Notes under the pieces: model-generated | Seen by the model: only the letters and a program-made list of their open reading frames with translations | Database searches by the model: none | What the model was told of the DNA's origin: nothing | Sequence record: NZ_CP021276.1 | Source of the DNA: a plasmid | Length of the DNA stretch: 64,000 bases | Direction: 5' to 3' (one strand) | Program-made: the position numbers and the translations under genes | Shown here: positions 427 through 24,008 of the stretch, one piece after another | Numbering within the stretch: the first letter of the stretch is position 1 | Layout: each line of letters opens with the position of its first letter

Positions 427-3360
427 ATGCTGATGCAAGAAATTTTGGATAGCGCACCCAATCAATTTTGGCACGTACTCCCTCATGAAAAACGATTACT
501 CCAAAAAAAACGAGGATTATCGCGACTCACCTATTTATTGTTGTTTCGATGGTTTGAAAAGACTGCAAGCTTCCCAGAAGACATCAAAACAATTCCCTTG
601 GATTTAATCGATCATGGAATTGCTTTATCAGAAGAGCAAAGGTCGTATGAAGATCTACTCGATTTTTTTGAAAAAGAGCGATTAATTAATCGATATAAAC
701 AGGAAATTAGAGAACATTTTGAATTCAAGGAGTTCAATAAAGATTGTCCTTTTATTTGCGACTATTTAATGACGAATATTTTTAAAGAAAAAAATGATGA
801 GGTATTAAAATCTAAACTTTGCTTATTTCTTAAAAGTATAAAAACAGAGATTCCATCTGAAGCAGACTTACTCGAACTTATTAAAAATAAAAAGAAGGAT
901 AAAGAGGAACAGTTTTTTTCTCAAATTGATAATCTACTATCAGATAAAGATAAGAATTACATTGATGATTACCTTCTAACTAGTAATGATTTCAATGGTG
1001 TCTGTCAATTTTTAAGGCAAGACTCCAGCGATTCAACCAAAGAAGGGGTTGCGAATGAAATTAGTAGGCTTACAATATTAAATCAATTACCCGTTGAGTC
1101 GTTCAATTTTATTAGTGATATCAACATAAAACAACGAAATATTTATAGACGACGCTTTCTTACAGATACTCCTGAAAGAACAAAACGTCGAGCAGATATG
1201 AGTCGTTACTCCCTAGCCATTATATTTTGTTTTCAGCGACACCAAGAAGCAATAGATAATTTAATAGAGCACTTACTTTATTTTATCCACCAAATAAAAA
1301 AGACAGCCCAAAAGAAACAAGAAAAATTGAATAAAGAGATAGGCCAACAGCTAGGAGATCTGGACTCATTATATTCACTAGCTGAGATAAACAGAGATTT
1401 TCCAAAAGGGATTATTGAACAGGTTGTATACCCTTCTGTTTCTCAAGAAACAATAGATCACCTTATTAAAACAAGGGATTTTGCCCGTCAAATCAAGAAA
1501 AAAGTACGTGAATCTGCTATTAAGAAATACTCCAATACCTATCGTCATACTATTTTTAACATCATTGATTTCTTAAAGTTTCATTCTAACAATACTACAT
1601 TTTTGGAGGCGTTAGCACTAATCAAGCGGTATCAAAAGAGTAAGCTAAAATATTATCCAATTGAAGAAGAAGTTCCATTTTCTAGCTTAATTAGTAAACA
1701 ACATCAAAAAGAAATTACTGAGCGAGATGAGCTTAATAATTTAAGAATTTTAAGAAAAGACTATGAGTGTGCCATATTTAAACTCTTACGAATTAAACTG
1801 AAGCACAAAGAGGTTTGGGTGAATGGCGCATATAAATACCGTGACCCCATTGATGATTTGCCGAAAGACTTTGAGGAGAATCGCGTACAATATTACGCGT
1901 TATTAGAAGCACCCATACAATCACGTGACTTTACTAGTAAAATTAAAAATGAGATGGGGGAACATATTCAGCTGCTTGATGATGAATTTCCTGAAAATAA
2001 TTTAGTTACCATTATTAAGAAGAAAGGTAAACCTTGGATTGAACTTACCCCTTTAGTGAAAGTTGATGAGCCCAAGCTTATCCAACGACTCAAAGAAGCG
2101 GTTCTTTCCAAATGGGGTGTCATAGATTTACTCGATATTTTAAAAGAAGTAGATTTGCGAGAAAATTTCACAGACTGCTTCAGTACAGCTGGCAACCGTG
2201 AAATATTGGATCGTGAAACGATTCGAAAGAGGTTGTTATTATGTAATTTTGCTATTGGTACCAATGCAGGGCTTAAGAGAACAGCAGGAGCATCTAAGGG
2301 TGCTGTAACTTTTGAAGAATTAAGGCATATTAGAAACTTTTTCCTTAATAAGGATGATTTGCGTGAAGCAATTAACACCGTTGTTAATGCTATCTTTAGA
2401 ATCAGAAGCCCCAAGATATGGCGGTCAGTTTCCACAGCGTGTGCTGCGGATTCAAAGCAATTTGGTTGTTTCACTAAAAATTTGTTAACGGAATGGAGTC
2501 CGCGCCACCATAATAGTGGTGTAATGATATATTGGCATGTCAGCGATCAATACATCTGTGTTTACTCGCAGATGAAAACATGTACCTCATCTGAAGTAGC
2601 ATCCATGTTACAAGGGATTATGGATCAAGAAACTGCTATGGAGATTGAATCACAGTATGTGGATAGTCATGGCCAAAGTGAACTGGGGTTTGCTTTAAGT
2701 TACCTTGAGCAATTCGATCTACTTCCACGATATAAAACAATTGGCAATCAAAAGCTTTATTTGCCTTCCGATGATTTTCAAATAAAAAATATTAAAGAAA
2801 TTACCACACGTGCAATTAATTGGGAATTAATAGAGGACCAATACAACGAAATGATCAAACATGCTGTTGCATTAAAAGTAGGTACAGCAACCGCAGACAC
2901 GATTATTCGAAAATTTGCCAGAAGTAACTACCAACACCCTACATTTAAAGCTTTTATGGAGCTAGGAAAAGCAGTAAAAACCATTTTTTTGTGCCGTTAT
3001 CTTCATTCTGTTGAACTCAGGCAACAAATTAATGCTGGTCTGAATGTCGTTGAAAATTGGAATGGTGCCAATGATTTTGTATATTATGGCAAAAGCGGAG
3101 AAATCACATCAAATGCTCGTGATGACCAAGAAATCTCAATGCTTTGCTTACACCTACTTCAAACGAGTATTTCTTACGTTAATACATTGCTAATCGAAGA
3201 ACTATTACAAGACGAATATTGGCTAAGCCGATTAAGCGAAGAGGATTACAGGGCCTTAACCGCCTTATTCTACTTACACATCAATCCATATGGCAGTTTT
3301 GAAGTGGATTTAACAAAACGATTGATGATTAGGCCTATCTTGGAAGGAGCTATAGCATGA
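427..3360 (+). CDS. tnpA: Tn3-family transposase TnpA
   Basis: 977 aa. C-terminal blocks align with Tn3 TnpA as I remember it: VMIYWHVSDQY vs ITWYNFVSDQY; LNVVENWNGANDFVYYGKSGEI vs LNRGESRHAVARAICHGQKGEI; DQEISMLCLHLLQTSISYVNTLLIEELL vs DQLGALGLVTNAVVLWNTIYMQAAL. Confidence 0.85.
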   Translation: MLMQEILDSAPNQFWHVLPHEKRLLQKKRGLSRLTYLLLFRWFEKTASFPEDIKTIPLDLIDHGIALSEEQRSYEDLLDFFEKERLINRYKQEIREHFEFKEFNKDCPFICDYLMTNIFKEKNDEVLKSKLCLFLKSIKTEIPSEADLLELIKNKKKDKEEQFFSQIDNLLSDKDKNYIDDYLLTSNDFNGVCQFLRQDSSDSTKEGVANEISRLTILNQLPVESFNFISDINIKQRNIYRRRFLTDTPERTKRRADMSRYSLAIIFCFQRHQEAIDNLIEHLLYFIHQIKKTAQKKQEKLNKEIGQQLGDLDSLYSLAEINRDFPKGIIEQVVYPSVSQETIDHLIKTRDFARQIKKKVRESAIKKYSNTYRHTIFNIIDFLKFHSNNTTFLEALALIKRYQKSKLKYYPIEEEVPFSSLISKQHQKEITERDELNNLRILRKDYECAIFKLLRIKLKHKEVWVNGAYKYRDPIDDLPKDFEENRVQYYALLEAPIQSRDFTSKIKNEMGEHIQLLDDEFPENNLVTIIKKKGKPWIELTPLVKVDEPKLIQRLKEAVLSKWGVIDLLDILKEVDLRENFTDCFSTAGNREILDRETIRKRLLLCNFAIGTNAGLKRTAGASKGAVTFEELRHIRNFFLNKDDLREAINTVVNAIFRIRSPKIWRSVSTACAADSKQFGCFTKNLLTEWSPRHHNSGVMIYWHVSDQYICVYSQMKTCTSSEVASMLQGIMDQETAMEIESQYVDSHGQSELGFALSYLEQFDLLPRYKTIGNQKLYLPSDDFQIKNIKEITTRAINWELIEDQYNEMIKHAVALKVGTATADTIIRKFARSNYQHPTFKAFMELGKAVKTIFLCRYLHSVELRQQINAGLNVVENWNGANDFVYYGKSGEITSNARDDQEISMLCLHLLQTSISYVNTLLIEELLQDEYWLSRLSEEDYRALTALFYLHINPYGSFEVDLTKRLMIRPILEGAIA

Positions 3361-4055
3361 GAACCCCAACTAAAGAGATTGTAAAAAAAATCAGTAAAAT
3401 TTTGAGAGATGAGCGGCCTGATTATATTTATTTAAGGGATTTATTTAAAAAAATACGGGAAGAGTTTGATATTGTAGTGACAACACATCCCAAACGATTA
3501 CCTTGTGTACCCACAGAAGAGGAACTGAGACAGTATTACAATATTGTCTGGCAAACAAGAAACACTAAACACATGGTATTGATTAGAGTATTGCTTTATA
3601 CAGGTATCAGAGTCCAGGAATTAGTCAATATTAAAATGAATGATATTGATTTTGATCGTTGCCAGATAAGGATTAATCACGGAAAAGGCAATAAAGATCG
3701 GATCGTACCATTTCCAGATACCTTCAAAGAAACGCTTATTCTTTTTGTTCATTCAGAACTGGCAAAAGGTGCTCTCTATTTATTTGAATCAAATAGAAAA
3801 AAACCATTTACGACCCGGGGAGTAAGAAAGATTTTAGCTGAGTATGCCACTGAAGCAGGGATGCAACAATCTATCTCGCCACATAAACTTAGACATTTTT
3901 TATTTACATGGCTTAAAAAACAAGGTATAGATGATGCCTTAATTCAGCCTTATTCAGGACATGAAACCAGGCAGTCGCTAGAAATATATTCAAAATTATC
4001 GTTAGCAGATGCACAAGAGATATATAACGAAAAAATAGATAAATTTCCAATTTAA
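3357..4055 (+). CDS. Tyrosine site-specific recombinase (TnpI/XerD-like resolvase of the transposon)
   Basis: 232 aa. It overlaps the tnpA stop (ATGA). The C-terminal RHFLFTWLKKQGID...GHETRQSLEIYSKL has the R..H..R..Y pattern of tyrosine recombinases. Confidence 0.7.
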   Translation: MRTPTKEIVKKISKILRDERPDYIYLRDLFKKIREEFDIVVTTHPKRLPCVPTEEELRQYYNIVWQTRNTKHMVLIRVLLYTGIRVQELVNIKMNDIDFDRCQIRINHGKGNKDRIVPFPDTFKETLILFVHSELAKGALYLFESNRKKPFTTRGVRKILAEYATEAGMQQSISPHKLRHFLFTWLKKQGIDDALIQPYSGHETRQSLEIYSKLSLADAQEIYNEKIDKFPI

Positions 4056-6275: not shown

Positions 6276-6481
6276 GAGCTAGTATTCGGATATAAAAAAT
6301 TAACGAAGTAAAATAAATAGGAACTAGTGTTACGAGTAATTTAACCCATAATGCCACCAGCGACATCGACAATTAAAAAGCCTCCCGTGAGCAAAAGAGC
6401 GAACCAAAGTAACTGCTCTTTTGAGTATTTTTTTAATCATGAGGTACATCCTTACTCATTATTGCTCCTCATCACCACCAG

Positions 6482-6655
6482 CTAATTTAATTTAAATGAA
6501 ACACCATGTAAGAAAATTGCGGCAAGAATAAGAAAAGTAATTAAAGCGGTGTAAAAATGAATGGTTTTCTTAGTTTTTCTGAACCAGAAGATAAGACCAA
6601 TCAATACAATAATTGCAATACCTAAAGAACCTAAAAACCATCCATTAGTAAACAT
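6482..6655 (-). CDS. Unannotated small membrane protein (57 aa, 2 TM)
   Basis: I hand-translated the minus strand: MFTNGWFLGSLGIAIIVLIGLIFWFRKTKKTIHFYTALITFLILAAIFLHGVSFKLN. It is below the ORF-track length cutoff. Confidence 0.25.
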   Translation of the reverse strand: MFTNGWFLGSLGIAIIVLIGLIFWFRKTKKTIHFYTALITFLILAAIFLHGVSFKLN

Positions 6656-6668
6656 TATGTTTTCCTAT

Positions 6669-6833
6669 TTAGTCGTTCTTAGGTTGGTGGTTATGACCTC
6701 CATCACCACCAAATCCTCCCTCATAGCCAACCTCAGGATGAGCTGGAGCAGGTGTTGTTTTAGGAGTGCAGGCAGTTAAGCCCAGACCCAATAAACCGAT
6801 CAATACAATTATTTTAAATCCATTAATATTCAT
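6669..6833 (-). CDS. Unannotated small lipoprotein (54 aa) with a Gly/His-rich tail
   Basis: I hand-translated the minus strand: MNINGFKIIVLIGLLGLGLTACTPKTTPAPAHPEVGYEGGFGGDGGHNHQPKND. It has a lipobox (LTAC) and an AAGGAG RBS 7 nt upstream. Confidence 0.35.
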   Translation of the reverse strand: MNINGFKIIVLIGLLGLGLTACTPKTTPAPAHPEVGYEGGFGGDGGHNHQPKND

Positions 6834-6956
6834 TATTTCTCCTTAACAGCCAATCAAAATAACATGAAACTACTTACATCGTAATATACTCAATAACATA
6901 AGATAAATGCATCTTATCTTCTCCAATTTTACGTTTACACGCCACCTTTAAAAAAT

Positions 6957-7376
6957 TCATTTTTTAATATTCTTTACAAAATCAAGCAACTGTACTGCAT
7001 CCTTCTTGGATATAGGTTTTTTAAAATAAGTAGCGCTATCGTGCAGGTTTTCCTGATTAGGGTTGGAAGTTAAAATGATCATAGGCGTATGGTTGTTTAA
7101 TACTGAATTTTTTTGTATCTGGTCAATCAGCTCATGGCAATTTAAATTTTTATCCACTAAAATAAAATCATAAACTCTCATGAAAGCCAACTCTCTTGCC
7201 GAGTCATCATCTCCTGCCATATCCACCAAATGCTTCAACTCTAATAAATGCATACGAATGAGAATACGAATTCCTAATGAGGATTCCACCACTAAAAAAC
7301 GCAATGGATGAGCGCTGCATTGTTCATTTTCAACCCAATCATTCATCATGCAACCTCTTTCGTGACAAACCCGCAA
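6957..7376 (-). CDS. Stand-alone receiver (REC/CheY-like) domain protein, last gene of the P-type ATPase operon
   Basis: Has FILVDKNL (phospho-acceptor Asp), IILTSN (Thr/Ser) and FKKPI (Lys-Pro). It lies 9 nt downstream of the ATPase stop. Confidence 0.55.
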   Translation of the reverse strand: MRVCHERGCMMNDWVENEQCSAHPLRFLVVESSLGIRILIRMHLLELKHLVDMAGDDDSARELAFMRVYDFILVDKNLNCHELIDQIQKNSVLNNHTPMIILTSNPNQENLHDSATYFKKPISKKDAVQLLDFVKNIKK

Positions 7377-7385
7377 AGACTCTCA

Positions 7386-9542
7386 TTATCCATTCATTTC
7401 CTGATATTCAGAATGCCCTTTATGGGAATTAAGTAAGCGCAGACCATTCGCAACAACAATTAGACTCGCACCCATATCAGCAAATACCGCCATCCATAGC
7501 GTTGCGAATCCTCCCAAGGCCAGAATAAAAAACACCCCTTTGATGGCAAGGGACAAAGTAATATTTTGGCGAAGAATACGCGCCGTTTTTCGGCTTAAAT
7601 CAATGTATAAAGGCAGCATGGCTAAATTATCATTCATTAATGCAACATCTGCCGTTTCTAAAGCGGTATCAGTACCTTTCCCCATTGCAAAACTAATCGT
7701 AGCCTTAGCCAAGGCTGGAGCGTCATTGATTCCATCCCCCACCATTCCTACCGTTTTATACTGTTCCAAAAGGTGATTAATTGCTTGTAATTTTTCAGTA
7801 GGCAAGACATTCGCCTGCACTTCATCAATCCCCACCACTTTGGCAATGGCTTTAGCTGTTAAGGCATTATCACCCGTTAACATCGCTGTTTTAAGTCCTT
7901 GTTGATGCAAGGTGTCAATTGCCCATTTGCTTGTAGAGCGCAAAGTATCAGCCACCGCAAAAACCGCCAAAACTACCGCTGAATTACTCAAAATGACTGT
8001 TGTTTTTCCTTCCTCTTCCAAACGCTTAAGTTCCTGCTCTACAGCAAGAGAGCACACCTTATTATCTTCTGCCAGTTGATGATTTCCAACGTAATACAGT
8101 TCTTGACTAATAATGCCTTGCACCCCGCGGCCAGGAAGTGCTGAAAATTGCTCTACCTCAAATAAAGACCCATTAGGTTGGCTTTGCTTCCAATACTCAA
8201 CCAAAGCATGAGCCACTGGATGTTCCGAATGACTATCAAGGCTTGCAGCCAGCACTAACAAGTATTCTTTTGGTTGGATTTTATCGTAAACGATAAAATC
8301 AGTCACCACAGGCTTCCCCTCAGTTAAGGTGCCTGTTTTATCCAGGGCAATTAATTTGAGCTGGTGCCCCAGTTCTAAATAGCTGCCGCCTTTGATAAGA
8401 AGACCATGTTGTGCTGCTGAAGCCAATCCGCTGACTACCGTTACCGGTGTAGAGATGACCAAAGCACAAGGGCAAGCAATAACCAATAACGTTAAGGCCT
8501 TATAAATCCAATCATAAAAAGGATAACCAAACACCAACGGGGGAATAAGTGCAATAACCAGTGCAATCAAGACCATAATTGGGGTGTAGTATTTGGCAAA
8601 CTCATCGACAAAGCGTTGCGTTGGTGCCCGCTCACTTTGTGCCTGCTCAATGGCTTTACCAATTTTAGCAAGCAACGTATCACCCGAAGCCTTAGTGACT
8701 TTAACTTCAAAGGCACCGTGCTCATTTAAGGTTCCGGCAAACACGTCATCACCTACTTGCTTGCTCACCGGCATGGATTCCCCTGTAATCGGGGCTTGAT
8801 TGACCGTACTTTGTCCCGATATCAACACCCCATCCAGTGGGATGCGCTCACCGGGTTTTACTTTAAATACCGCACCGACCGCTACATCTTCTACAGGCAA
8901 AGTCTGCCATTGACCATTATCCATTTTAATCCGAGCCACCTCTGGTGCAATTTGCATGAGACTGCGAATGGCAAGGCGGGCTTTATCTAATGAATAACGT
9001 TCGATTCGCTCAGCAAGAGCAAATAAAACGGTGACCATCGCAGCTTCCGGCCAGGCACCTATAATCATAGCCCCGGTGATTGCAATTAACATCAGGCTAT
9101 TAATATTCATGGCCTTAGTACGAAGCGCGATTAAACCCTTCTTAAAAGTAGAAGGGCCACTTAAGATAATGGCAAGCACCGCAGGCAAAATGACCCAGAT
9201 TGATTGCTCTTTGGCAATGAAATAAGCAGTTAACTCAGAGCAAAGCGCTAAAAGACCTGCCAAAGCAAGCAATGGCCATGACGAATCAACTTGCTTCTTC
9301 TCTTCTTTTGCAGAGGAGGTACTGCCTTGAACCCGAACACTCATGCCTAACGCTTCAATTTGTTTTTGCAACACATCAATAGCTGGAAGACGATGGTGCA
9401 CGGTCACTTCCTCAGCAATGAAATTAAAATCCATCTGCGCCACTTCAGGAATCACTTTTAATTGCCGCCTGATTAATTGCTCTTCAGCCGGGCAATCAAG
9501 GCCTGCAACAAAAAAAGTGGTTAAGGTTAGAGGCTTTGTCAT
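7386..9542 (-). CDS. P1B-type heavy-metal (Zn/Cd/Pb-type) translocating ATPase
   Basis: Has an N-terminal HMA domain (GLDCPAEEQ), CPC (ACPCALVISTP), DKTGTLT, GDGINDAP and an HP motif. I chose the start at MTKPLTL (9542), which makes a 4-nt overlap with the upstream zinc-ribbon gene. The longest ORF runs to 9605. Confidence 0.85.
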   Translation of the reverse strand: MTKPLTLTTFFVAGLDCPAEEQLIRRQLKVIPEVAQMDFNFIAEEVTVHHRLPAIDVLQKQIEALGMSVRVQGSTSSAKEEKKQVDSSWPLLALAGLLALCSELTAYFIAKEQSIWVILPAVLAIILSGPSTFKKGLIALRTKAMNINSLMLIAITGAMIIGAWPEAAMVTVLFALAERIERYSLDKARLAIRSLMQIAPEVARIKMDNGQWQTLPVEDVAVGAVFKVKPGERIPLDGVLISGQSTVNQAPITGESMPVSKQVGDDVFAGTLNEHGAFEVKVTKASGDTLLAKIGKAIEQAQSERAPTQRFVDEFAKYYTPIMVLIALVIALIPPLVFGYPFYDWIYKALTLLVIACPCALVISTPVTVVSGLASAAQHGLLIKGGSYLELGHQLKLIALDKTGTLTEGKPVVTDFIVYDKIQPKEYLLVLAASLDSHSEHPVAHALVEYWKQSQPNGSLFEVEQFSALPGRGVQGIISQELYYVGNHQLAEDNKVCSLAVEQELKRLEEEGKTTVILSNSAVVLAVFAVADTLRSTSKWAIDTLHQQGLKTAMLTGDNALTAKAIAKVVGIDEVQANVLPTEKLQAINHLLEQYKTVGMVGDGINDAPALAKATISFAMGKGTDTALETADVALMNDNLAMLPLYIDLSRKTARILRQNITLSLAIKGVFFILALGGFATLWMAVFADMGASLIVVANGLRLLNSHKGHSEYQEMNG

Positions 9543-18495: not shown

Positions 18496-19190
18496 AATTC
18501 TTCCTTACAACGAATGAGTCATCCACTTTTTTTAAATCGAAATGGTGTCACCTGATCATTAGGTTAACCTTAAGATAAGCAGGGTGACGGATAACCTCTT
18601 AATTATTGAGTTAATTACCAGTACCTTTTTTACGTATTGGATTGAGGTGTATCTTCGGTTTTTGAGGTACCGTATAAAAACCCTGAAAATAAGGTCTTAA
18701 GGTTGCTCATTGAGGGGGAAAATTGATTTTTAATATTCAGAATGTTACTCATTACCACGTTTCCTTAATTTGGTTTGAAACAACAATCAACCGGGCGTTT
18801 TTCCTTCGAACGGTTAAATCTTGATCATTCTATCGAATAAATTATGTTCAGTCATTCTTTTTTAGTGACTCACTATTCTTTATCTACTTGCCGCATTAAG
18901 GTTACCTGAATGGATATTTTTTAGTATCCCATCAACCACCAAGAGGTTCGTTTTCATCAAAATACCCAGGCGCTTTTTAAATGAATATTGAGATAATTTT
19001 TATCTTGTTCTTAACTCTTTATCGGTACTGCCTTAATTCAATCTATTCACATAGTTATCCCCTAAAATTGTGGATAAAAGAATGTTTTAAATTTGACCAC
19101 CTGCCTTTGATTTCGGAGCTTAGGAGCATTTAATAGTAATGAGCGAAGCGAATTCATTTAAAGCAGTTTAAAAGAAGGATTTAGATTTGT

Positions 19191-19345
19191 GCCTCGTCAT
19201 TCATCGCTCAGTCGCAAAAAATAAAAATAACGGAGTATTTTATTAAGAACAATGAGGAACGGAGCGAGCTTGCGAGTGAGTAGTCATTGTTCTTAATAAA
19301 ATGCGGAGTTATCTTTTATTGCGATTGAGTGATGGGTGATGAGGC
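19191..19345. repeat. ~155-bp imperfect palindrome: two ~65-bp inverted arms around a 26-bp centre
   Basis: Left arm: gcctcgtcattcatcgctcagtcgcaa...attttattaagaacaatga. The right arm is its near reverse complement, with a perfect 20-bp core (ATTTTATTAAGAACAATGA / TCATTGTTCTTAATAAAAT). Confidence 0.6.
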
Positions 19346-19420
19346 AATCGATCTTTAATTATTGCTTTGTTTGTTTTTTTATTTGATTATTGGCCATAGG
19401 CCAATTCATTATTATTAATT

Positions 19421-19447
19421 ATCCACAAGGATGTTCTGTGGATAATA
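19421..19447. promoter_or_regulatory. Two perfect DnaA boxes in inverted orientation (TTATCCACA ... TGTGGATAA) in an AT-rich tract, as part of a candidate oriV downstream of repA. Another TGTGGATAA lies near 19078–19086.
   Basis: Seen directly in the sequence. The DnaA-box consensus TTATCCACA is established knowledge. Confidence 0.55.
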
Positions 19448-19741: not shown

Positions 19742-20578
19742 CTATTCCTGAAATTTGTGACGGCGTAAAAGGGATTCGCGTCGTCTGCGCTCTTTTTCGC
19801 GCGCCTGCTCTTCGGTTTTCTGCTCCAACTTAAGCATGTCTTTCATTACATCAATATGGGTTTTAGCATTCCCTTTTGGAGCTATAAAATCAAGAATGTT
19901 ACGTGCGGCAGCCTGAGACTCCTGAGCATTGGCAATAAAGATGCTTCGCTTCTTATTAAGCCGTTTACGCGCAAGAGCGCGTTGTGCCGACAGTGCCTGA
20001 AGATTAATGTTGCATGCTTTAAAAAAGGCGGGCGTTAGGCATTTTACCGCGGCAAGACCAATAAAACGCTCTTTACCTTCCTCTAGTTTAACATCAAAAC
20101 GCTCAATCATTTTTAAATAGCCTGCACGAACCAGTAATTTAATAGCGCGTTGTGCTCGCTTTAAACCAATTCCTGCCTTATCAGCAAGAAATTCGATGGT
20201 AAGGGAGCGAAAGCCTTCACTTGCATGAGGTACACCCACCCGAAGGCTTGCCAGTTCTGTGTAATATAATAAGACCTGAGCAATGCTTGCCAAAGCCTCA
20301 CGTGCCTCAGAGCGCTGCTGGCGCGTTGAGTTGCGGCGCATACGGATTTCTTTAAAATAGGATGTGGGTAGCCCATAGTAACGCCGCCAGGCATCAATCG
20401 CCCAGGTAATTATTTTGGGGCGAGCCTTATGTTCCTGTGGCTTTTGAAAAAAACGTGGGGACTCAGGATCATGGCCGCACCAGTTCCCCTGACGCACCAC
20501 CCCTGCCCTTCGAGAGCTGTAGTCTGTTGATTTCTCAATGAAATCAATGCAATCCATCACTAACGCACTTTCTTGCAT
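19742..20578 (-). CDS. repA: Plasmid replication initiator (RepA; IncFII-RepA-like by context)
   Basis: 278 aa, basic, with a K/R-rich C-terminus. It is flanked downstream by DnaA boxes and an AT-rich region, and upstream by a structured leader plus a partition cassette. The family assignment is from memory and is not verified. Confidence 0.55.
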   Translation of the reverse strand: MQESALVMDCIDFIEKSTDYSSRRAGVVRQGNWCGHDPESPRFFQKPQEHKARPKIITWAIDAWRRYYGLPTSYFKEIRMRRNSTRQQRSEAREALASIAQVLLYYTELASLRVGVPHASEGFRSLTIEFLADKAGIGLKRAQRAIKLLVRAGYLKMIERFDVKLEEGKERFIGLAAVKCLTPAFFKACNINLQALSAQRALARKRLNKKRSIFIANAQESQAAARNILDFIAPKGNAKTHIDVMKDMLKLEQKTEEQAREKERRRRESLLRRHKFQE

Positions 20579-20642
20579 GCGTAAAATACCCTTAGCGGTA
20601 GCTAATTATTGACTAATCAATTACTTAACGCTAAGATATAAT

Positions 20643-20702
20643 TGTTCAGGTTATACTTTAGCGTTAACCGGAAAAGCCCGCGCCAACGGGCTTTTTTTTT
20701 GT
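20643..20702 (+). ncRNA. Candidate short countertranscript (CopA-like antisense RNA) in the repA leader
   Basis: A TATAAT hexamer at 20637–20642 lies ~30 nt upstream of a hairpin (cttaacgctaag / ctttagcgttaacc). The terminator is at 20672–20702. This is inferred, not demonstrated. Confidence 0.3.
20672..20702 (+). terminator. Rho-independent terminator on the + strand: GC-rich stem AAAGCCCG / CGGGCTTT, then T9
   Basis: No + strand gene lies upstream of it. It sits antisense to the repA leader. Confidence 0.6.
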
Positions 20703-20801
20703 ATTTAAACTCATTAGTCCAAAGTTATCGTTTATTATTAAACCAGTCAACTTCTTTTTTTTTATAACCACTTGAAATAATGGATTATTTTGTAATTTAT
20801 T

Positions 20802-21173
20802 GGTTCACATTCGGTTCACGTTTTTTCAAGTGAAATGGTTCACAATTAGTTCACGAACTGCTTGAATATCTACACTGATATTTGTACCACTGAAGCTCAT
20901 ATTCGGCTCACACTTTTGATTTACATGACTCTAAATTAGCTAATATTTAGATCTAAATAATGGTACACAAACGGTTCACATAAATGCAGGAGGCTCTTTA
21001 TTTAATTAGATCAGTTCGAAAACATACCCAATCAGAATATGCAGTTCACGATTAATTCAGATCATATTTTCAATTTTAATCAAATACAGAAATGGAATAG
21101 CCTAAATGATTTTACTTAAAGGTTCACAAATGGTTCACGTTAAATGATGTTTATTGGTTCACAAAAGGAACAC
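20802..21173. repeat. Iteron/centromere-like field: ~12 GGTTCAC-type half-sites, mostly as pairs with 11-bp centre-to-centre spacing
   Basis: Sites at 20802/20813, 20837/20848, 20904, 20962/20973, 21043, 21121/21132 and 21156/21167. Confidence 0.7.
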
Positions 21174-21302
21174 AAAATAACAATTAAATATATAAAAAAA
21201 TATTTTATGTATTTTAGTAACTTTATCATTGACCTAAAGAAGTGAGTATGCAATTGTATGTATTAATACAATAATAATGAAAAAACATACAAGGCACGAA
21301 TA

Positions 21303-22352
21303 ATGGAACAATTAAGCTGGACTAACTCAGACATTCGTAAATTATTTAAAATGGATAATCGATTCAAATCAGTTCAGACATTATATAACGCAGAAGATCG
21401 AGGAGAAATACCTACAGCCAAAAGAGAGGCTAGAGGGAAAGTTTCAACTAGAGTATGGGACTTATATCAACTCCCTGAAATTGGTAAACGATTCGGCTTT
21501 TTGAAACCACCAATACAACAAAAGATACTATGTAAATACATGCAAAAAGGAGGAGTTTACAAAACAACTTCCAGCTATAATGAGGCACGCACTTTAGCAC
21601 TTAATGGCATTAAAACCATTTTAATAGGCTTGGATCCCGAATGCTCTGTTTCTGATATAATAATTCCTCAGCAAGAACTTAATAGACTTGATGATTTTGA
21701 ACAAGCAAAAGGTCTATTTCATTTTTTTGTCGAAAATACGCCATTAGATGAAATCATTCGTCCCACATCATTACCCACCCTTGATTTCATACCTGAAACA
21801 CATGATTTGGTAAAATTAAACAAATGGATGTCCTTTGAAAAACGTCGCGAATATATTTTTCAGGATAAGTTAATTCCTCTCCTATCCAAATATGATGTCA
21901 TCATTTTTGATAATAGTCCTACATGGAATCATCTCGTTGAGAACTCAATTTTAGTTTCTTCATCAGTTATTATGCCATTAGGATGCAGCCTCCTCGCCTA
22001 TAATGCATCCGCTACTAATATGCAAAACATATGGGATTTTCAAGATGTGATGAGGCTAACAAACCAAGGATTAATAATGTTTAGCACGGCTCTTGAGCGA
22101 AGCTCTCTTAGCCAACAAATCAATGCAACCTATCTAAGTCGTTATGTTGACTACATGATAACAACCCCCATACGCAAGTCTGTAAAATGGGAAGAAGCTC
22201 TGATGTCTAAACAGACTATTATAGAATACGCTCTTGGATCTTCTCAAGCAGAAGAATACTACCATCTAGTTTCTGAGTTATGGGCTAGGGTCAATAATAA
22301 TGAACATAGCTTTGTCGATTTATTACTAACTAACGAGCTAGAGGCTATCTAA
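21303..22352 (+). CDS. parA: ParA-family partition ATPase (type Ia, SopA/P1-ParA-like)
   Basis: Has the deviant Walker A KGGVYKTT, A' box ILIGLDPE and Walker B VIIFDNSP, plus a ~70-aa N-terminal extension. Confidence 0.8.
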   Translation: MEQLSWTNSDIRKLFKMDNRFKSVQTLYNAEDRGEIPTAKREARGKVSTRVWDLYQLPEIGKRFGFLKPPIQQKILCKYMQKGGVYKTTSSYNEARTLALNGIKTILIGLDPECSVSDIIIPQQELNRLDDFEQAKGLFHFFVENTPLDEIIRPTSLPTLDFIPETHDLVKLNKWMSFEKRREYIFQDKLIPLLSKYDVIIFDNSPTWNHLVENSILVSSSVIMPLGCSLLAYNASATNMQNIWDFQDVMRLTNQGLIMFSTALERSSLSQQINATYLSRYVDYMITTPIRKSVKWEEALMSKQTIIEYALGSSQAEEYYHLVSELWARVNNNEHSFVDLLLTNELEAI

Positions 22353-23632
22353 TGGCTATAAAAAAGGGAGCATTTGAATTATATACACAGGAAAGAAAAC
22401 TTCCTGAGAAAAAGGAAAGTAGTCATATCAAAAAAAGCCATTTTTTTGATGATGTATACTCTAAAAACAAAGGTTCACAATTAGTTCATGAACGGTTCAC
22501 AACAGGAGAAGGAATACTCACCGAAGATCAACAAAACCATTCGGGCTCTGATTCAAACAACAATGGAAATATCGGTTCACAAATGGTTCATGAACGGTTC
22601 ACGACAGGAGAAGGAAGGCTCGCCGAAGATCAACAAAACCATTCGGACTCTGATTCAAACAACAATGGAAATATCGGTTCACAAATGGTTCATGAACGGT
22701 TCACGACAGGAGAAGGAAGGCTCGCCGAAGATCAACAAAACCATTCGGACTCTGATTCAAACAATAATGGAAATATCGGTTCACAAATGGTTCATGAACG
22801 GTTCACAACAGGAGAAGGAAGGCTCGCCCAAGATCAACAAAGCCATCTGGATTCTGATTCAAACAACAATGCAAATATCGGTTCACAAATGGTTCATGAA
22901 CGGTTCACAACAGGAGAAGAGAGGCTCGCCCAAGATCAACAAAGCCATCTGGATTCTGATTCAAACAATAATGCAAATATCGGTTCACAAATGGTTCATG
23001 AACGGTTCACAACAGGAGAAGAGAGGCTCGCCCAAGATCAACAAAGCCATCTGGATTCTGATTCAAACAACAATGGAAATATCGGTTCACAAATGGTTCA
23101 TGAACGGTTCACGACAGAAGAAGGAAGGCTCACCGAAAATCAACGAAACCATTCGGACTCTGATTCAAGCAATAATGCAAATATCGGTTCACAATTGGTT
23201 CATGAACGGTTCACAATAGGAGAAAGAGGGCTCGCCCAAGATCAACAAAACCATTCAGAATCTGAATCAAACAACAATGCAGGTATCGGTTCACAATTGG
23301 TTCACACTGATATAAATAATGTTTCATCTGAATTTGTAAAAAAACCTCAAATAAGTTTTTCAAAATTAGTTGGCAATCAAAGAGCAATATTAATAGCTCT
23401 ATATAAGAACATTAAAATTAATAAATCAGATTCAACTGATGAGCTAACCCTTGAATTGATCTCAGAAATTGCGAGAGTAAATCAAAAATCACTTAAAAAC
23501 ACTTTGTTCAGGTTAACTAATGCAGGGGTACTTATTCGGGTAGATCAAAAAGTAGGTAGGGGTGGATGGGTAAAGTACAAAATCAACTCTGAAATCATTA
23601 AAGAAATTCAACAGAAGGAATTTTTCAGATAA
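22352..23632 (+). CDS. Tandem-repeat protein with a C-terminal winged-helix-like domain. It is the candidate centromere-binding partner of ParA and is not ParB-like.
   Basis: 426 aa. It carries nine 34-aa repeats (GSQMVHERFTTGEGRLAEDQQNHSDSDSNNNGNI). The C-terminal ~100 aa is non-repetitive (…ELTLELISEIARVNQKSLKNTLFRLTNAGVLIRVDQKVGRGGWVKY…). Its start overlaps the parA stop (TAATG). Confidence 0.6.
   Translation: MAIKKGAFELYTQERKLPEKKESSHIKKSHFFDDVYSKNKGSQLVHERFTTGEGILTEDQQNHSGSDSNNNGNIGSQMVHERFTTGEGRLAEDQQNHSDSDSNNNGNIGSQMVHERFTTGEGRLAEDQQNHSDSDSNNNGNIGSQMVHERFTTGEGRLAQDQQSHLDSDSNNNANIGSQMVHERFTTGEERLAQDQQSHLDSDSNNNANIGSQMVHERFTTGEERLAQDQQSHLDSDSNNNGNIGSQMVHERFTTEEGRLTENQRNHSDSDSSNNANIGSQLVHERFTIGERGLAQDQQNHSESESNNNAGIGSQLVHTDINNVSSEFVKKPQISFSKLVGNQRAILIALYKNIKINKSDSTDELTLELISEIARVNQKSLKNTLFRLTNAGVLIRVDQKVGRGGWVKYKINSEIIKEIQQKEFFR
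22472..23310. repeat. Nine near-identical 102-bp tandem repeats inside the CDS, each with GGTTCAC-n4-GGTTCATGAAC-GGTTCAC (three half-sites at 11-bp spacing; GTTCATGAAC is palindromic)
   Basis: Unit starts at 22472, 22574, 22676, 22778, 22880, 22982, 23084, 23186 and 23288. This is the same motif as the upstream field at 20802–21173. Confidence 0.85.
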
Positions 23633-24008
23633 TTATATAAGTAAACCGTTAAACACACATCCGAAATTAAGCAGAGCTAAGAATGAAATTACACATATTT
23701 ACCACAAAAGTAGGGCTTCGGAAGTAATGGAACGACCAACCGACTTAAGAGTTATTTGGATCTCTGAGTGACCTTAATTTTCCATCCTTTACCTCATCAG
23801 ACATTGAGGGTTAATATCGGCCTAACATATTAAAAAGCTTTGCAAAATGGTAATAGTCTCACTAAATCTTCTACATTAACAGTAAAGTTATCGCTCTGTA
23901 GCTGGACTAGTGCTCCTAATTGACCCTCCTGTCCAGGTACAACAACTAGGAATATAATAAAACTTACTTGGGGTTCTTCACAGATCCTAGATTAATAAAA
24001 TAAAAATG

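Follow-up and report, generated by a model that had tools for sequence, protein, structure and literature searches.

A parA-coupled winged-helix gene of a Legionella pneumophila plasmid that probably doubles as the plasmid's centromere

The subject of this analysis is a plasmid partition cassette within a stretch of 64,000 nucleotides (sequence record NZ_CP021276.1, one strand; hereafter the window). The cassette consists of parA, which encodes a Walker-type ATPase, and of a gene for a 426-amino-acid (aa) protein, here called the adaptor gene, and it is the only detectable partition cassette of the L. pneumophila plasmid. A 7-bp sequence, GGTTCAC, recurs both 5′ of parA and within the coding region of the adaptor gene itself. 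Sequence comparisons suggest that the adaptor gene probably doubles as the plasmid's centromere, and that this design is kept in relatives with a lineage-specific motif.

The host plasmid of the cassette is conjugative and about 73 kb in size. The region 20600-23700 of the window is 100% identical to four complete L. pneumophila plasmids of 71-77 kb, which are conjugative with an F-type mating-pair system and in which the two genes are annotated as 'ParA family protein' and 'hypothetical protein'. The cassette contains the following features:

20802-21173, + strand: extragenic array field, 11 GGTTCAC-type sites (at most one mismatch) plus GGAACAC at 21167, all in one orientation
20802-20854, + strand: distal four-site module, spacing 11/24/11
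20905, + strand: single site
20962/20973, + strand: site pair
21043, + strand: single site
21121-21173, + strand: proximal four-site module, spacing 11/24/11, with position and spacing kept in nine Legionella-type lineages
21229-21261, + strand: probable parA promoter, with -35 TTGAC(C) at 21229-21234 and extended -10-like TG-N-AATTGTATGT at 21249-21261
21254-21261 and 21285-21292, + strand: inverted repeat TTGTATGT / ACATACAA, between the promoter and the parA ribosome-binding site
21303-22352, + strand: parA, coding for a Walker-type ParA ATPase of 349 aa (N-terminal extension ~75 aa), zero GGTTCAC sites
22352-23632, + strand: adaptor gene (putative centromere-binding protein), 426 aa, TAATG overlap with the parA stop codon
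22352-22471, + strand: conserved N-terminal segment of the adaptor, MAIKKGAFELYTQERKLPEKK...SHFFDD, kept across short and long forms
22472-23305, + strand: intragenic array, 8.2 units of 102 bp, 26 sites in total
23354-23632, + strand: winged-helix DNA-binding domain, H1-H2-H3, beta-hairpin wing and C-terminal helix

The 7-bp sites and their constraint as DNA

Exact GGTTCAC occurs 30 times in the window, compared to a mean of 4.45 ± 1.9 and a maximum of 11 in dinucleotide shuffles. All 30 copies lie on the + strand and 25 of them fall within 20802-23305. The sites are direct repeats, not palindromes, and they occur as 11-bp-phased clusters 5′ of parA and within the coupled open reading frame (ORF). 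No GGTTCAC-type site was found in parA when one mismatch was allowed, and the other 60.8 kb of the window contain no site pair at 11-bp spacing. The initial annotation had described about 12 half-sites upstream of parA, which agrees with our count: 11 sites with at most one mismatch, seven of them exact, are present on the + strand in 20802-21162, and GGAACAC follows at 21167. The spacings in this upstream field are irregular and not of 102 bp, and the field contains no ORF. The site array is real, strongly non-random and evolutionarily conserved.

Within the adaptor gene, Tandem Repeats Finder detected a 102-bp period with 8.2 copies and 92% matches in 22472-23304. The nine units over 839 bp that had been described before are thus eight full units and a partial ninth, while the 102-bp repeat itself stands. 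Each unit holds three 7-bp sites at 11-bp phasing, followed by a variable linker of 73 bp; in units 2-8 the cluster reads GGTTCAC-AAAT/AATT-GGTTCAT-GAAC-GGTTCAC. Phased copies of the site are present in the ORF as stated earlier, but they number 26 (25 with at most one mismatch, plus AGTTCAT at 22483) and not about 27. The three sites had also been thought to surround a palindrome, GTTCATGAAC. The three-site cluster was found in units 2-8, but the palindrome was dropped as a separate binding site: relatives carry CACGATCGG, CACAAACGG and similar sequences instead, and since GTTCATGAAC is not conserved it is incidental, being particular to the His-Glu-Arg codons of this plasmid. The coordinated blocks NGNI/NANI and GRLAE/ERLAQ are present among the array units. 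The expansion or gene conversion that had been proposed is supported: the array evolves by expansion and homogenisation, as seen in the relatives, whose proteins range from 239 to 505 aa, many with 34-aa repeat units.

Because the sites of a cluster lie 11 bp apart, the heptamer is read in three frames and gives the peptide GSQxVHxRFT: GGT-TCA-C.. encodes Gly-Ser-Gln, ..G-GTT-CA. encodes x-Val-His and.GG-TTC-AC. encodes Arg-Phe-Thr. The codons at these motif residues were compared in 15 other Legionella-type loci, where GGT was used in 45/47 cases, TCA in 47/47, CAA in 47/47, GTT in 47/47, CGG in 16/17 and TTC in 17/17. The background use of the same codons on this plasmid is 0.27, 0.24, 0.62, 0.31, 0.09 and 0.17, respectively. 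In total, 219 of the 222 motif-position codons (99%) are the same as in the window. As a control for shared ancestry we used the winged-helix codons of the same genes, in which 446 of 946 identical residues (47%) share the window's codon (motif versus winged helix, Fisher p ~1e-56).

A similar contrast is seen within the array of the window, where 2 of 29 site-cluster positions vary, compared to 25 of 73 linker positions (p = 0.005). Linker differences between units comprise 26 non-synonymous and 10 synonymous changes, a ratio that is close to neutral and suggests no detectable protein-level constraint. In addition, the 11-bp repeat lag was the strongest or second strongest within the ORF in every lineage tested and was zero in parA; as 11 is not a multiple of 3, this lag points to selection at the DNA level. 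These comparisons indicate that selection on the in-ORF sites acts on the DNA and not on the encoded peptide. With its fixed motif codons and a linker under no detectable protein constraint, the array fits the earlier proposal of DNA-level selection over a tolerated linker.

The most AT-rich 40-bp segment of the 426-aa ORF (0.82, mean 0.62) lies where the winged-helix domain begins and in the stretch immediately preceding it. We also observed a 243-aa ORF in another frame (22488-23219, + strand, frame +2, MNGSQQEKE...) that is open across the repeat array. Its translation is the 102-bp unit in a shifted frame. The simplest view is therefore that the repeats create it as a by-product, and it was rejected as a gene on this ground, no further signs of a gene having been looked for; gene callers could mis-annotate it.

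Covariation of the motif in related loci

Homologues of the adaptor form a large, unannotated family. At E-values up to 1e-3 it comprises 433 cluster representatives (50% identity), which come from Legionellales, Piscirickettsia, Bdellovibrio and many metagenomes; a search of 50,697 phage records returned no homologue. In every examined locus that retains the repeat region, be it Legionella-type, Piscirickettsia, Bdellovibrio or metagenomic, the adaptor gene lies directly 3′ of the ParA gene. The two-block pattern recurs in each of the 15 Legionella-type loci with a retained parA, and its sites are on the coding strand throughout. For instance, pLD-TEX-KL of F. dumoffii, whose ParA gene has 78% DNA identity, carries about 17 exact GGTTCAC copies 5′ of parA, and two GGTTCAC triplets are present in the gene of its 243-aa homologue. 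Two truncated remnants (L015 and L018) have neither a ParA nor a single GGTTCAC.

Distant homologues, with 30-35% identity in the winged helix, use other motifs. The first plasmid type of P. salmonis has GGAACAC, with nine copies upstream and nine in the ORF (peptide NGTQTEHKRNT), and the second has CGTACAC, with six upstream and five in the ORF (peptide NRTQTVHKVNT). A metagenomic locus (L027) carries GATCACAAAC in the ORF and, inverted, upstream; in another (L026) the motif is GAACACAAAC/GGACACAAA, and in Bdellovibrio pBdHAGR4 it is RGACAMA. Common to the lineages is the core CACAAA, whereas the four preceding bases are lineage-specific. The motif shifts alike inside and outside the ORF, a covariation that is seen across the family.

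In some relatives the array is confined to the gene. In the complete 11.9-kb plasmid pBdHAGR4, 17 of 18 + strand copies of the motif fall within the ORF, and a non-coding array is absent. Intragenic-only arrays were also found in L029/L030 and in L034, which encodes a 704-aa long form and has GGTTCAC. Therefore, the gene can be the sole array-bearing locus.

These data also bear on the idea that the in-ORF sites have no function of their own, recombination or gene conversion having copied them from the upstream arrays into a disordered linker that tolerates them, or, alternatively, that the peptide GSQxVHxRFT is itself selected and the upstream arrays are decayed gene fragments. The near-neutral linker ratio (26 versus 10) and the disorder-typical composition would agree with it, as would the ease with which tandem arrays homogenise and the range of in-ORF copy numbers across the family, from 2 to about 26. 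However, no complete family member among those examined is without a phased cluster in its ORF, although the proteins are only 30-35% identical, and the several intragenic-only lineages have no upstream donor. The motif moreover changes in three frames at once (GS/V/RF to GT/E/RN), which is unexpected for protein-level selection, its codons are fixed at the rare CGG (0.09) and TTC (0.17), and the upstream arrays are irregularly spaced and lack an ORF. We consider this by-product explanation, in either form, very improbable.

The 34-aa (102-bp) period is kept in many lineages despite unrelated linker sequences (examples are the proteins P0015, P0018, P0019, P0023, P0037 and P0040 and the loci L004-L006, L008, L009, L016 and L020). 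Because of this, protein lengths differ by whole repeat units; 366 and 434 aa, for instance, differ by two. Many database copies are marked 'partial' (P0001-P0003 and P0032, Legionella spp.) and several loci start or end at a contig edge within the repeats (for example L004 and L007). The 102-bp repeats are probably where short-read assemblies break, which makes copy numbers in draft genomes unreliable.

Three further leads were dropped. ParA-adaptor fusions were considered as 'Rosetta stone' evidence, but the members of 500-704 aa have no ParA domain. In the Coxiella plasmid QpH1, genetics has shown that ParA (CBUA0037) and the product of the next gene are both required for partition; as an experimental proxy this pair was rejected, since CBUA0038 is annotated as an ordinary ParB-type protein (parB.2) and no Coxiella plasmid matched the family by tblastn. 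Finally, a 2.9-kb contig (L035) that holds only a ParA gene and a long form was not accepted as a circular two-gene replicon, because it has no terminal overlap.

The two proteins and known partition systems

ParA matches AAA_31 (E = 3.9e-27) and the PHROG 'ParA-like partition protein' (6.7e-34), its nearest PDB structures are ParA/Soj proteins, and its Walker A motif lies at about residue 81. Its amino-acid identity across 15 related loci is 80-95%. Type Ia ParA proteins such as P1 ParA and F SopA have about 390-400 aa and an N-terminal winged helix-turn-helix (HTH) domain that serves autoregulation. The type Ia assignment made in the initial annotation holds only approximately, as the protein, 349 aa long including its extension of ~75 aa, aligns with the SopA profile over residues 23-243 only (45 bits, cut-off 725) and gives weak matches to the P1 and P7 ParA structures (E 3e-4 to 9e-4). 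It is also too large for type Ib, in which ParA is small (about 200-250 aa) and has no extension. The sequence at 21229-21261 is probably the parA promoter; it is not listed by a consensus scan, but its -35 and TG-N-AATTGTATGT columns are invariant in a nine-lineage alignment. Both arms of the inverted repeat TTGTATGT/ACATACAA are likewise invariant across nine diverged lineages, and the repeat may be an operator bound by ParA through its N-terminal extension or a hairpin in the 5′ untranslated region.

The TAATG overlap and the 426-aa ORF at 22352-23632 are as first described, and they indicate that the adaptor gene is translationally coupled to parA. By its sequence, its product is not ParB, a type of CTPase whose N-terminal ParB_N domain bears the GERRxR box for CTP binding, and this agrees with the initial annotation: no match to ParB_N, HTH_ParB or ParB_C was found in Pfam and NCBIfam even at E up to 1. 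The same databases gave no match to Rep_3, and together with PHROGs none to a Rep, O or DnaD family and no meaningful match of another kind. An AlphaFold2 model of the last 120 residues, built with 37 homologues, shows a winged helix with a predicted local distance difference test (pLDDT) score above 90 over residues 30-117, which substantiates the winged-helix-like C-terminus proposed earlier. The predicted recognition helix is KSLKNTLFRL. Fold neighbours found with Foldseek are MarR/ArsR-type winged helices, mostly transcriptional repressors, and include the archaeal AspA and the N-terminal domain of the staphylococcal pTZ2162 RepA. There is a single winged helix and not the two tandem ones (WH1-WH2) of Rep_3, RepE and pi initiators. 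The protein stops nine residues past the last helix of the winged helix and has no counterpart of the C-terminal domain of the long forms described below. The region N-terminal to the winged helix is coded by the repeats, and its counterpart in a modelled long form is predicted to be disordered. At the very N-terminus, short and long forms alike follow the consensus MA[IVL]KK.xF..Y..E... then SH..(V)FD[DE], and a short helix is predicted there in the long form. By analogy, this basic peptide may contact and activate ParA, a role that we assign to it because the N-terminal tails of ParB and ParG are known to act in this way.

Taken together, the cassette lies outside the ParB, type Ib, type III and Rep_3 classes and fits type Ia at best approximately. 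Instead of a ParB-type central HTH on a palindromic parS, we found a C-terminal MarR/ArsR-type winged helix and direct repeats, and a winged helix is predicted where type Ib has a ribbon-helix-helix binder (ParA size being the second departure from that type). The motor is a Walker ParA and not the tubulin-like GTPase TubZ of type III.

In its way of working the cassette would nevertheless most resemble a type Ib system. The binder of such systems is small and activates ParA with a flexible N-terminal tail. As in TP228 ParF/ParG-parH, pB171 par2 and pSM19035 delta/omega, a Walker ParA is followed directly by the gene of a non-ParB binder with an N-terminal tail (ParA-activating in type Ib, and presumed so here), and an array of short, directly repeated sites lies 5′ of the operon, with 11-12 sites at 20802-21173 in a layout that is kept in relatives. 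The differences are the winged helix in place of a ribbon-helix-helix, the 349-aa ParA with its extension and the location of most sites in the binder's coding sequence.

Direct repeats about one helical turn apart are also a feature of TubR-tubC (pBtoxis, type III) and ParR-parC (R1, type II). The tubC repeats are 12 bp and the parC repeats 11 bp apart, many copies of a small protein bind cooperatively in two blocks, and TubR is a winged helix. However, their motors are the TubZ GTPase and the actin-like ParM, and their centromeres are non-coding. Sequence similarity of the adaptor to TubR or ParR was not detected, and neither is among the top fold matches. A winged helix that works with a Walker ParA is AspA, which requires a separate ParB adaptor and binds a palindromic site before spreading. 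AspA of pNOB8 is a fold neighbour of the adaptor domain (4rs8, 5k5q; target-normalised template modelling (TM) score 0.61-0.65) at E ~6e-3, that is, at a generic level, but has no intragenic site array.

Centromere sites inside the gene of their own binder have precedents. In B. subtilis, a parS lies within the coding sequence of spo0J. On the Streptomyces plasmid SCP2, the gene of the binder ParT contains a centromere site (PMC12260392). In both cases this is one palindrome of 16-18 bp bound by a ParB-type protein, in contrast to the 2 to about 26 direct repeats, the three-frame peptide and the tandem expansion found here. Replication origins, too, can lie in the gene of their initiator, as in lambda (O/ori) and the RepA_N plasmids pAD1 and pSK41. 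In repABC operons, oriV is inside repC, which forms an operon with ParA and ParB homologues (PMC3155836). In these systems the sites lie in the part of the gene that codes for the flexible linker of a winged-helix protein which binds them, and the adaptor gene, too, has its site array in a linker-coding segment (26 phased sites, 22472-23305). However, the lambda O, RepA_N and RepC proteins are initiators and have a C-terminal effector domain, which in the O, DnaD and RepA_N types recruits the helicase, its loader or the primase. The window protein is without one, and its gene is coupled to parA and adjoins a separate replicon.

For the geometry of binding, the closest parallel is found in transcription factors. 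PhoB/OmpR boxes are 7-bp direct repeats with 4-bp spacers and thus an 11-bp period, on which winged helices sit head-to-tail on one face of the DNA. Because GGTTCAC sites share this 7+4 bp layout, we propose head-to-tail binding for the adaptor as well. PhoB and OmpR are response regulators unrelated to partition and use two to four sites; homology to the adaptor was not detected.

A candidate centromere, other roles for the array, and the neighbouring replicon

On these grounds we favour, with fair confidence, the view that the adaptor represents a new class of ParA adaptor, the coding sequence of which carries part, and in some relatives all, of the centromere. The protein would consist of a short basic N-terminal peptide that activates ParA and a C-terminal winged helix, joined by a long disordered linker. 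Winged helices would sit head-to-tail on the 7-bp direct repeats (GGTTCAC plus a 4-bp spacer), and the 11-bp period would place the sites on one face of the DNA. Two repeat blocks flank parA, the non-coding upstream field and the roughly 26 sites in the linker-coding sequence, and would jointly form one extended centromere of about 2.5 kb. The peptide GSQxVHxRFT would be a by-product of the DNA sites, and the 102-bp unit could grow and shrink through unequal recombination. More speculatively, binding within the gene might throttle adaptor expression as a transcriptional roadblock. We infer the winged helix as the binder, the segregation role of the complex and the contact between N-terminal peptide and ParA from the features described above. 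The gene-as-centromere and DNA-level-selection readings offered in the initial annotation are mutually compatible, and both are supported by the family-wide covariation.

Several observations weigh against this proposal. The C-terminal domain has no PDB fold match with E < 1e-3 and its neighbours are generic, and no description of the family or the motif was found in the literature that was searched. Covariation alone cannot tell which protein reads the motif, because ParA and the winged-helix protein always co-occur; we favour the winged-helix protein because the arrays persist with a short ParA (282 aa, Bdellovibrio), which by its length would lack the extension. The upstream arrays lie 130-500 bp from the start codon, clear of the putative promoter, so that autoregulation in the style of type Ib is not evident. 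Further points come from the long forms of 400-500 aa that make up most of the family and have a central winged helix, repeats on both sides and a confidently predicted helical C-terminal domain, for which no structural or family match was found. Of 84 long forms, 35 match the PHROG phrog_428 'replication initiation protein' (best E 1e-7 to 1e-6) and 19 match O-like families. The model of one long form (P0048) matches GpO and a 'replisome organizer' in BFVD at E ~1e-4 with TM-scores of 0.16-0.24, another (P0172) has a DnaA_N domain, and in L022 (2300-3577) and L029 (2952-4481) an AT-rich stretch coding for Ser, Asn and Thr comes after the repeats that follow the winged helix.

The distance of the upstream sites from parA also matters for the suggestion that the winged-helix protein binds the repeats for regulation only, by autorepression of the operon and by an intragenic roadblock that sets the adaptor-to-ParA ratio, with the link of ParA to its cargo made elsewhere or non-specifically. 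The arrays bracket the operon, the intragenic block is 3′ of parA, so that bound protein would be expected to cut adaptor expression selectively, and the fold neighbours are, as mentioned, mostly repressors. However, 26-37 sites far exceed what an operator needs, the upstream sites at 130-500 bp from the start codon are outside the conserved -35/-10 region, and the promoter has an invariant inverted repeat of its own that would make the likelier operator. Regulation and centromere function do not exclude each other either, since type Ib and type II centromeres double as operators. A purely regulatory role therefore seems improbable to us.

If the centromere reading is correct, Walker ParA motors of bacteria would have a fourth structural class of centromere binder, built on a winged helix, next to the ParB-HTH and ribbon-helix-helix proteins, and archaeal AspA would be a distant parallel. 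The gene would also be the clearest case yet of a coding sequence in which an overlapping array of sites for a DNA-binding protein sets the encoded amino acids, and GSQxVHxRFT and its lineage variants would be a natural experiment in dual coding. The reading would account for the 'hypothetical' annotation and for the many partial entries, assemblies probably breaking in the repeats, and an 11-bp repeat lag in the ORF after parA could serve as a search signature for such centromeres. Cis sites and incompatibility determinants would be indicated for plasmids of Legionella and of the fish pathogen Piscirickettsia, previously without known centromeres or origins.

The replicon of the window lies on the other side of the upstream array. 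A RepA-like gene at 19742-20578 on the - strand encodes 278 aa with a weak RepA_IncFII match (E 2.3e-7). The complete plasmid lacks both ParB and a second ParA, and no further Rep is annotated on it. Of the five perfect DnaA boxes (TTATCCACA) in the window, three lie within 380 bp 3′ of this gene, next to which an AT-rich run is present at 19.0-19.5 kb; none was found in 20.7-23.7 kb or in or beside the GGTTCAC arrays, in contrast to the iterons of Rep_3-type initiators, which adjoin DnaA boxes and an AT-rich unwinding element. The features of this region are:

19069, - strand: DnaA box
19419, + strand, and 19437, - strand: DnaA boxes forming an inverted pair beside the AT-rich run at ~19370-19420
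20609-20700, + strand: antisense-RNA-like element with promoter-like TTGACT-17-TAAGAT, then two hairpins ending in a GC-rich stem and a U-tract

From this IncFII-like layout, 19069-19445 is probably the vegetative origin. The 278-aa protein is encoded upstream of the arrays in the window and in six relatives, pLD-TEX-KL has an unrelated 398-aa protein at this position, and the remaining Legionella-type loci have no match to the 278-aa protein; all keep GGTTCAC. The neighbouring Rep was rejected as the reader of the motif, since unrelated Rep candidates adjoin identical GGTTCAC arrays. The motif therefore follows the partition cassette and not the Rep. The replicon module itself recurs, with ~90% identity, in three plasmids without the winged-helix cassette. 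One of them, pLPE509 (L036, NC_020522.1), has at the cassette position (6471-7386) genes for a ParA-family ATPase of 212 aa and for a protein of 92 aa that matches no family, which looks like the swap of one partition cassette for another, type-Ib-like pair.

The arrangement of the replicon helps to judge the main alternative, which corresponds to the third reading of the initial annotation. Here an initiator of the O/DnaD/RepA_N type, or a copy-control protein, would be the identity or the origin of the winged-helix protein, and the 11-bp repeats would be iterons. The intragenic array would then be an origin, or a handcuffing or incompatibility site, in the linker-coding region, and ParA would merely be co-transcribed. 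The initiator and O-like matches of the long forms listed above agree with this, as do matches of 6/84 to DnaD-like loaders, matches of the Bdellovibrio homologue to phage replication initiation families, and BFVD matches to the GpO N-terminal region, 'replisome organizer' and 'replication initiator' over 240-290 aligned columns. The DnaA_N domain of P0172, the AT-rich stretches of L022 and L029 and the presence of the pTZ2162 RepA N-terminal domain among the fold neighbours point the same way. The complete 11.9-kb pBdHAGR4 has no other recognisable Rep, the authors of a P. salmonis plasmid study found no Rep on three of four plasmids (PMC6963756), and repC is a precedent for an origin inside a gene (PMC3155836). 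For the window, on the other hand, the protein has no Rep, O or DnaD match in Pfam, NCBIfam or PHROGs and lacks the C-terminal domain, which in O and RepA_N initiators recruits the host machinery. The plasmid also has its own RepA-like gene, accompanied by a cluster of perfect DnaA boxes and by an AT-rich run, DnaA boxes are absent from the arrays, and the replicon persists at ~90% identity in plasmids without the cassette, one of which has a small ParA pair in its place. The similarity to initiators is weak and mostly limited to the winged helix (TM-scores 0.16-0.24), and both the strict operon coupling to a conserved ParA and the absence of any other adaptor would be left unexplained. We regard the iteron explanation as unlikely, and for the window protein its case appears weaker than for the long forms.

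For the long forms, the C-terminal domain, the AT-rich stretch and DnaA_N suggest a replication role, and these proteins may be initiators or bifunctional. Some of them have an N-terminal motif homologous to the Legionella one, and for this reason the window protein looks like a C-terminally shortened derivative. A tentative broader version of the centromere proposal, which we hold with less than even confidence, would unite these data in a large family of ParA-coupled winged-helix proteins related to O/DnaD-type initiators, with the cis array in the linker-coding sequence and read in three frames. In some plasmids two genes without any non-coding site would then form a self-contained segregation module, and in long forms the array would perhaps be origin and centromere at once. 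If long forms are bifunctional, one protein and one site array would link replication initiation and segregation.

Two replicons with a long-form cassette (L023, 6683-8261; L027, 2004-2804) carry a conventional ParB gene elsewhere, which has a ParA in L023 and no adjacent ParA in L027. Each of these replicons may have two partition-type systems. On pBdHAGR4 (L025), a 452-aa ORF at 2593-3951 on the - strand fills most of a stretch without annotated gene, and its translation, read by eye, suggests that it may encode a reverse transcriptase.

The antisense-RNA-like element at 20609-20700 lies between the RepA-like gene and the upstream array. A search of Rfam found no known RNA family anywhere in the window. 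The element is antisense to the leader of the RepA-like gene and could be a copy-control RNA; its predicted free energy is -19.2 kcal/mol (z -2.3), and other Legionella plasmids share its first 100 nt at 96-97% identity.

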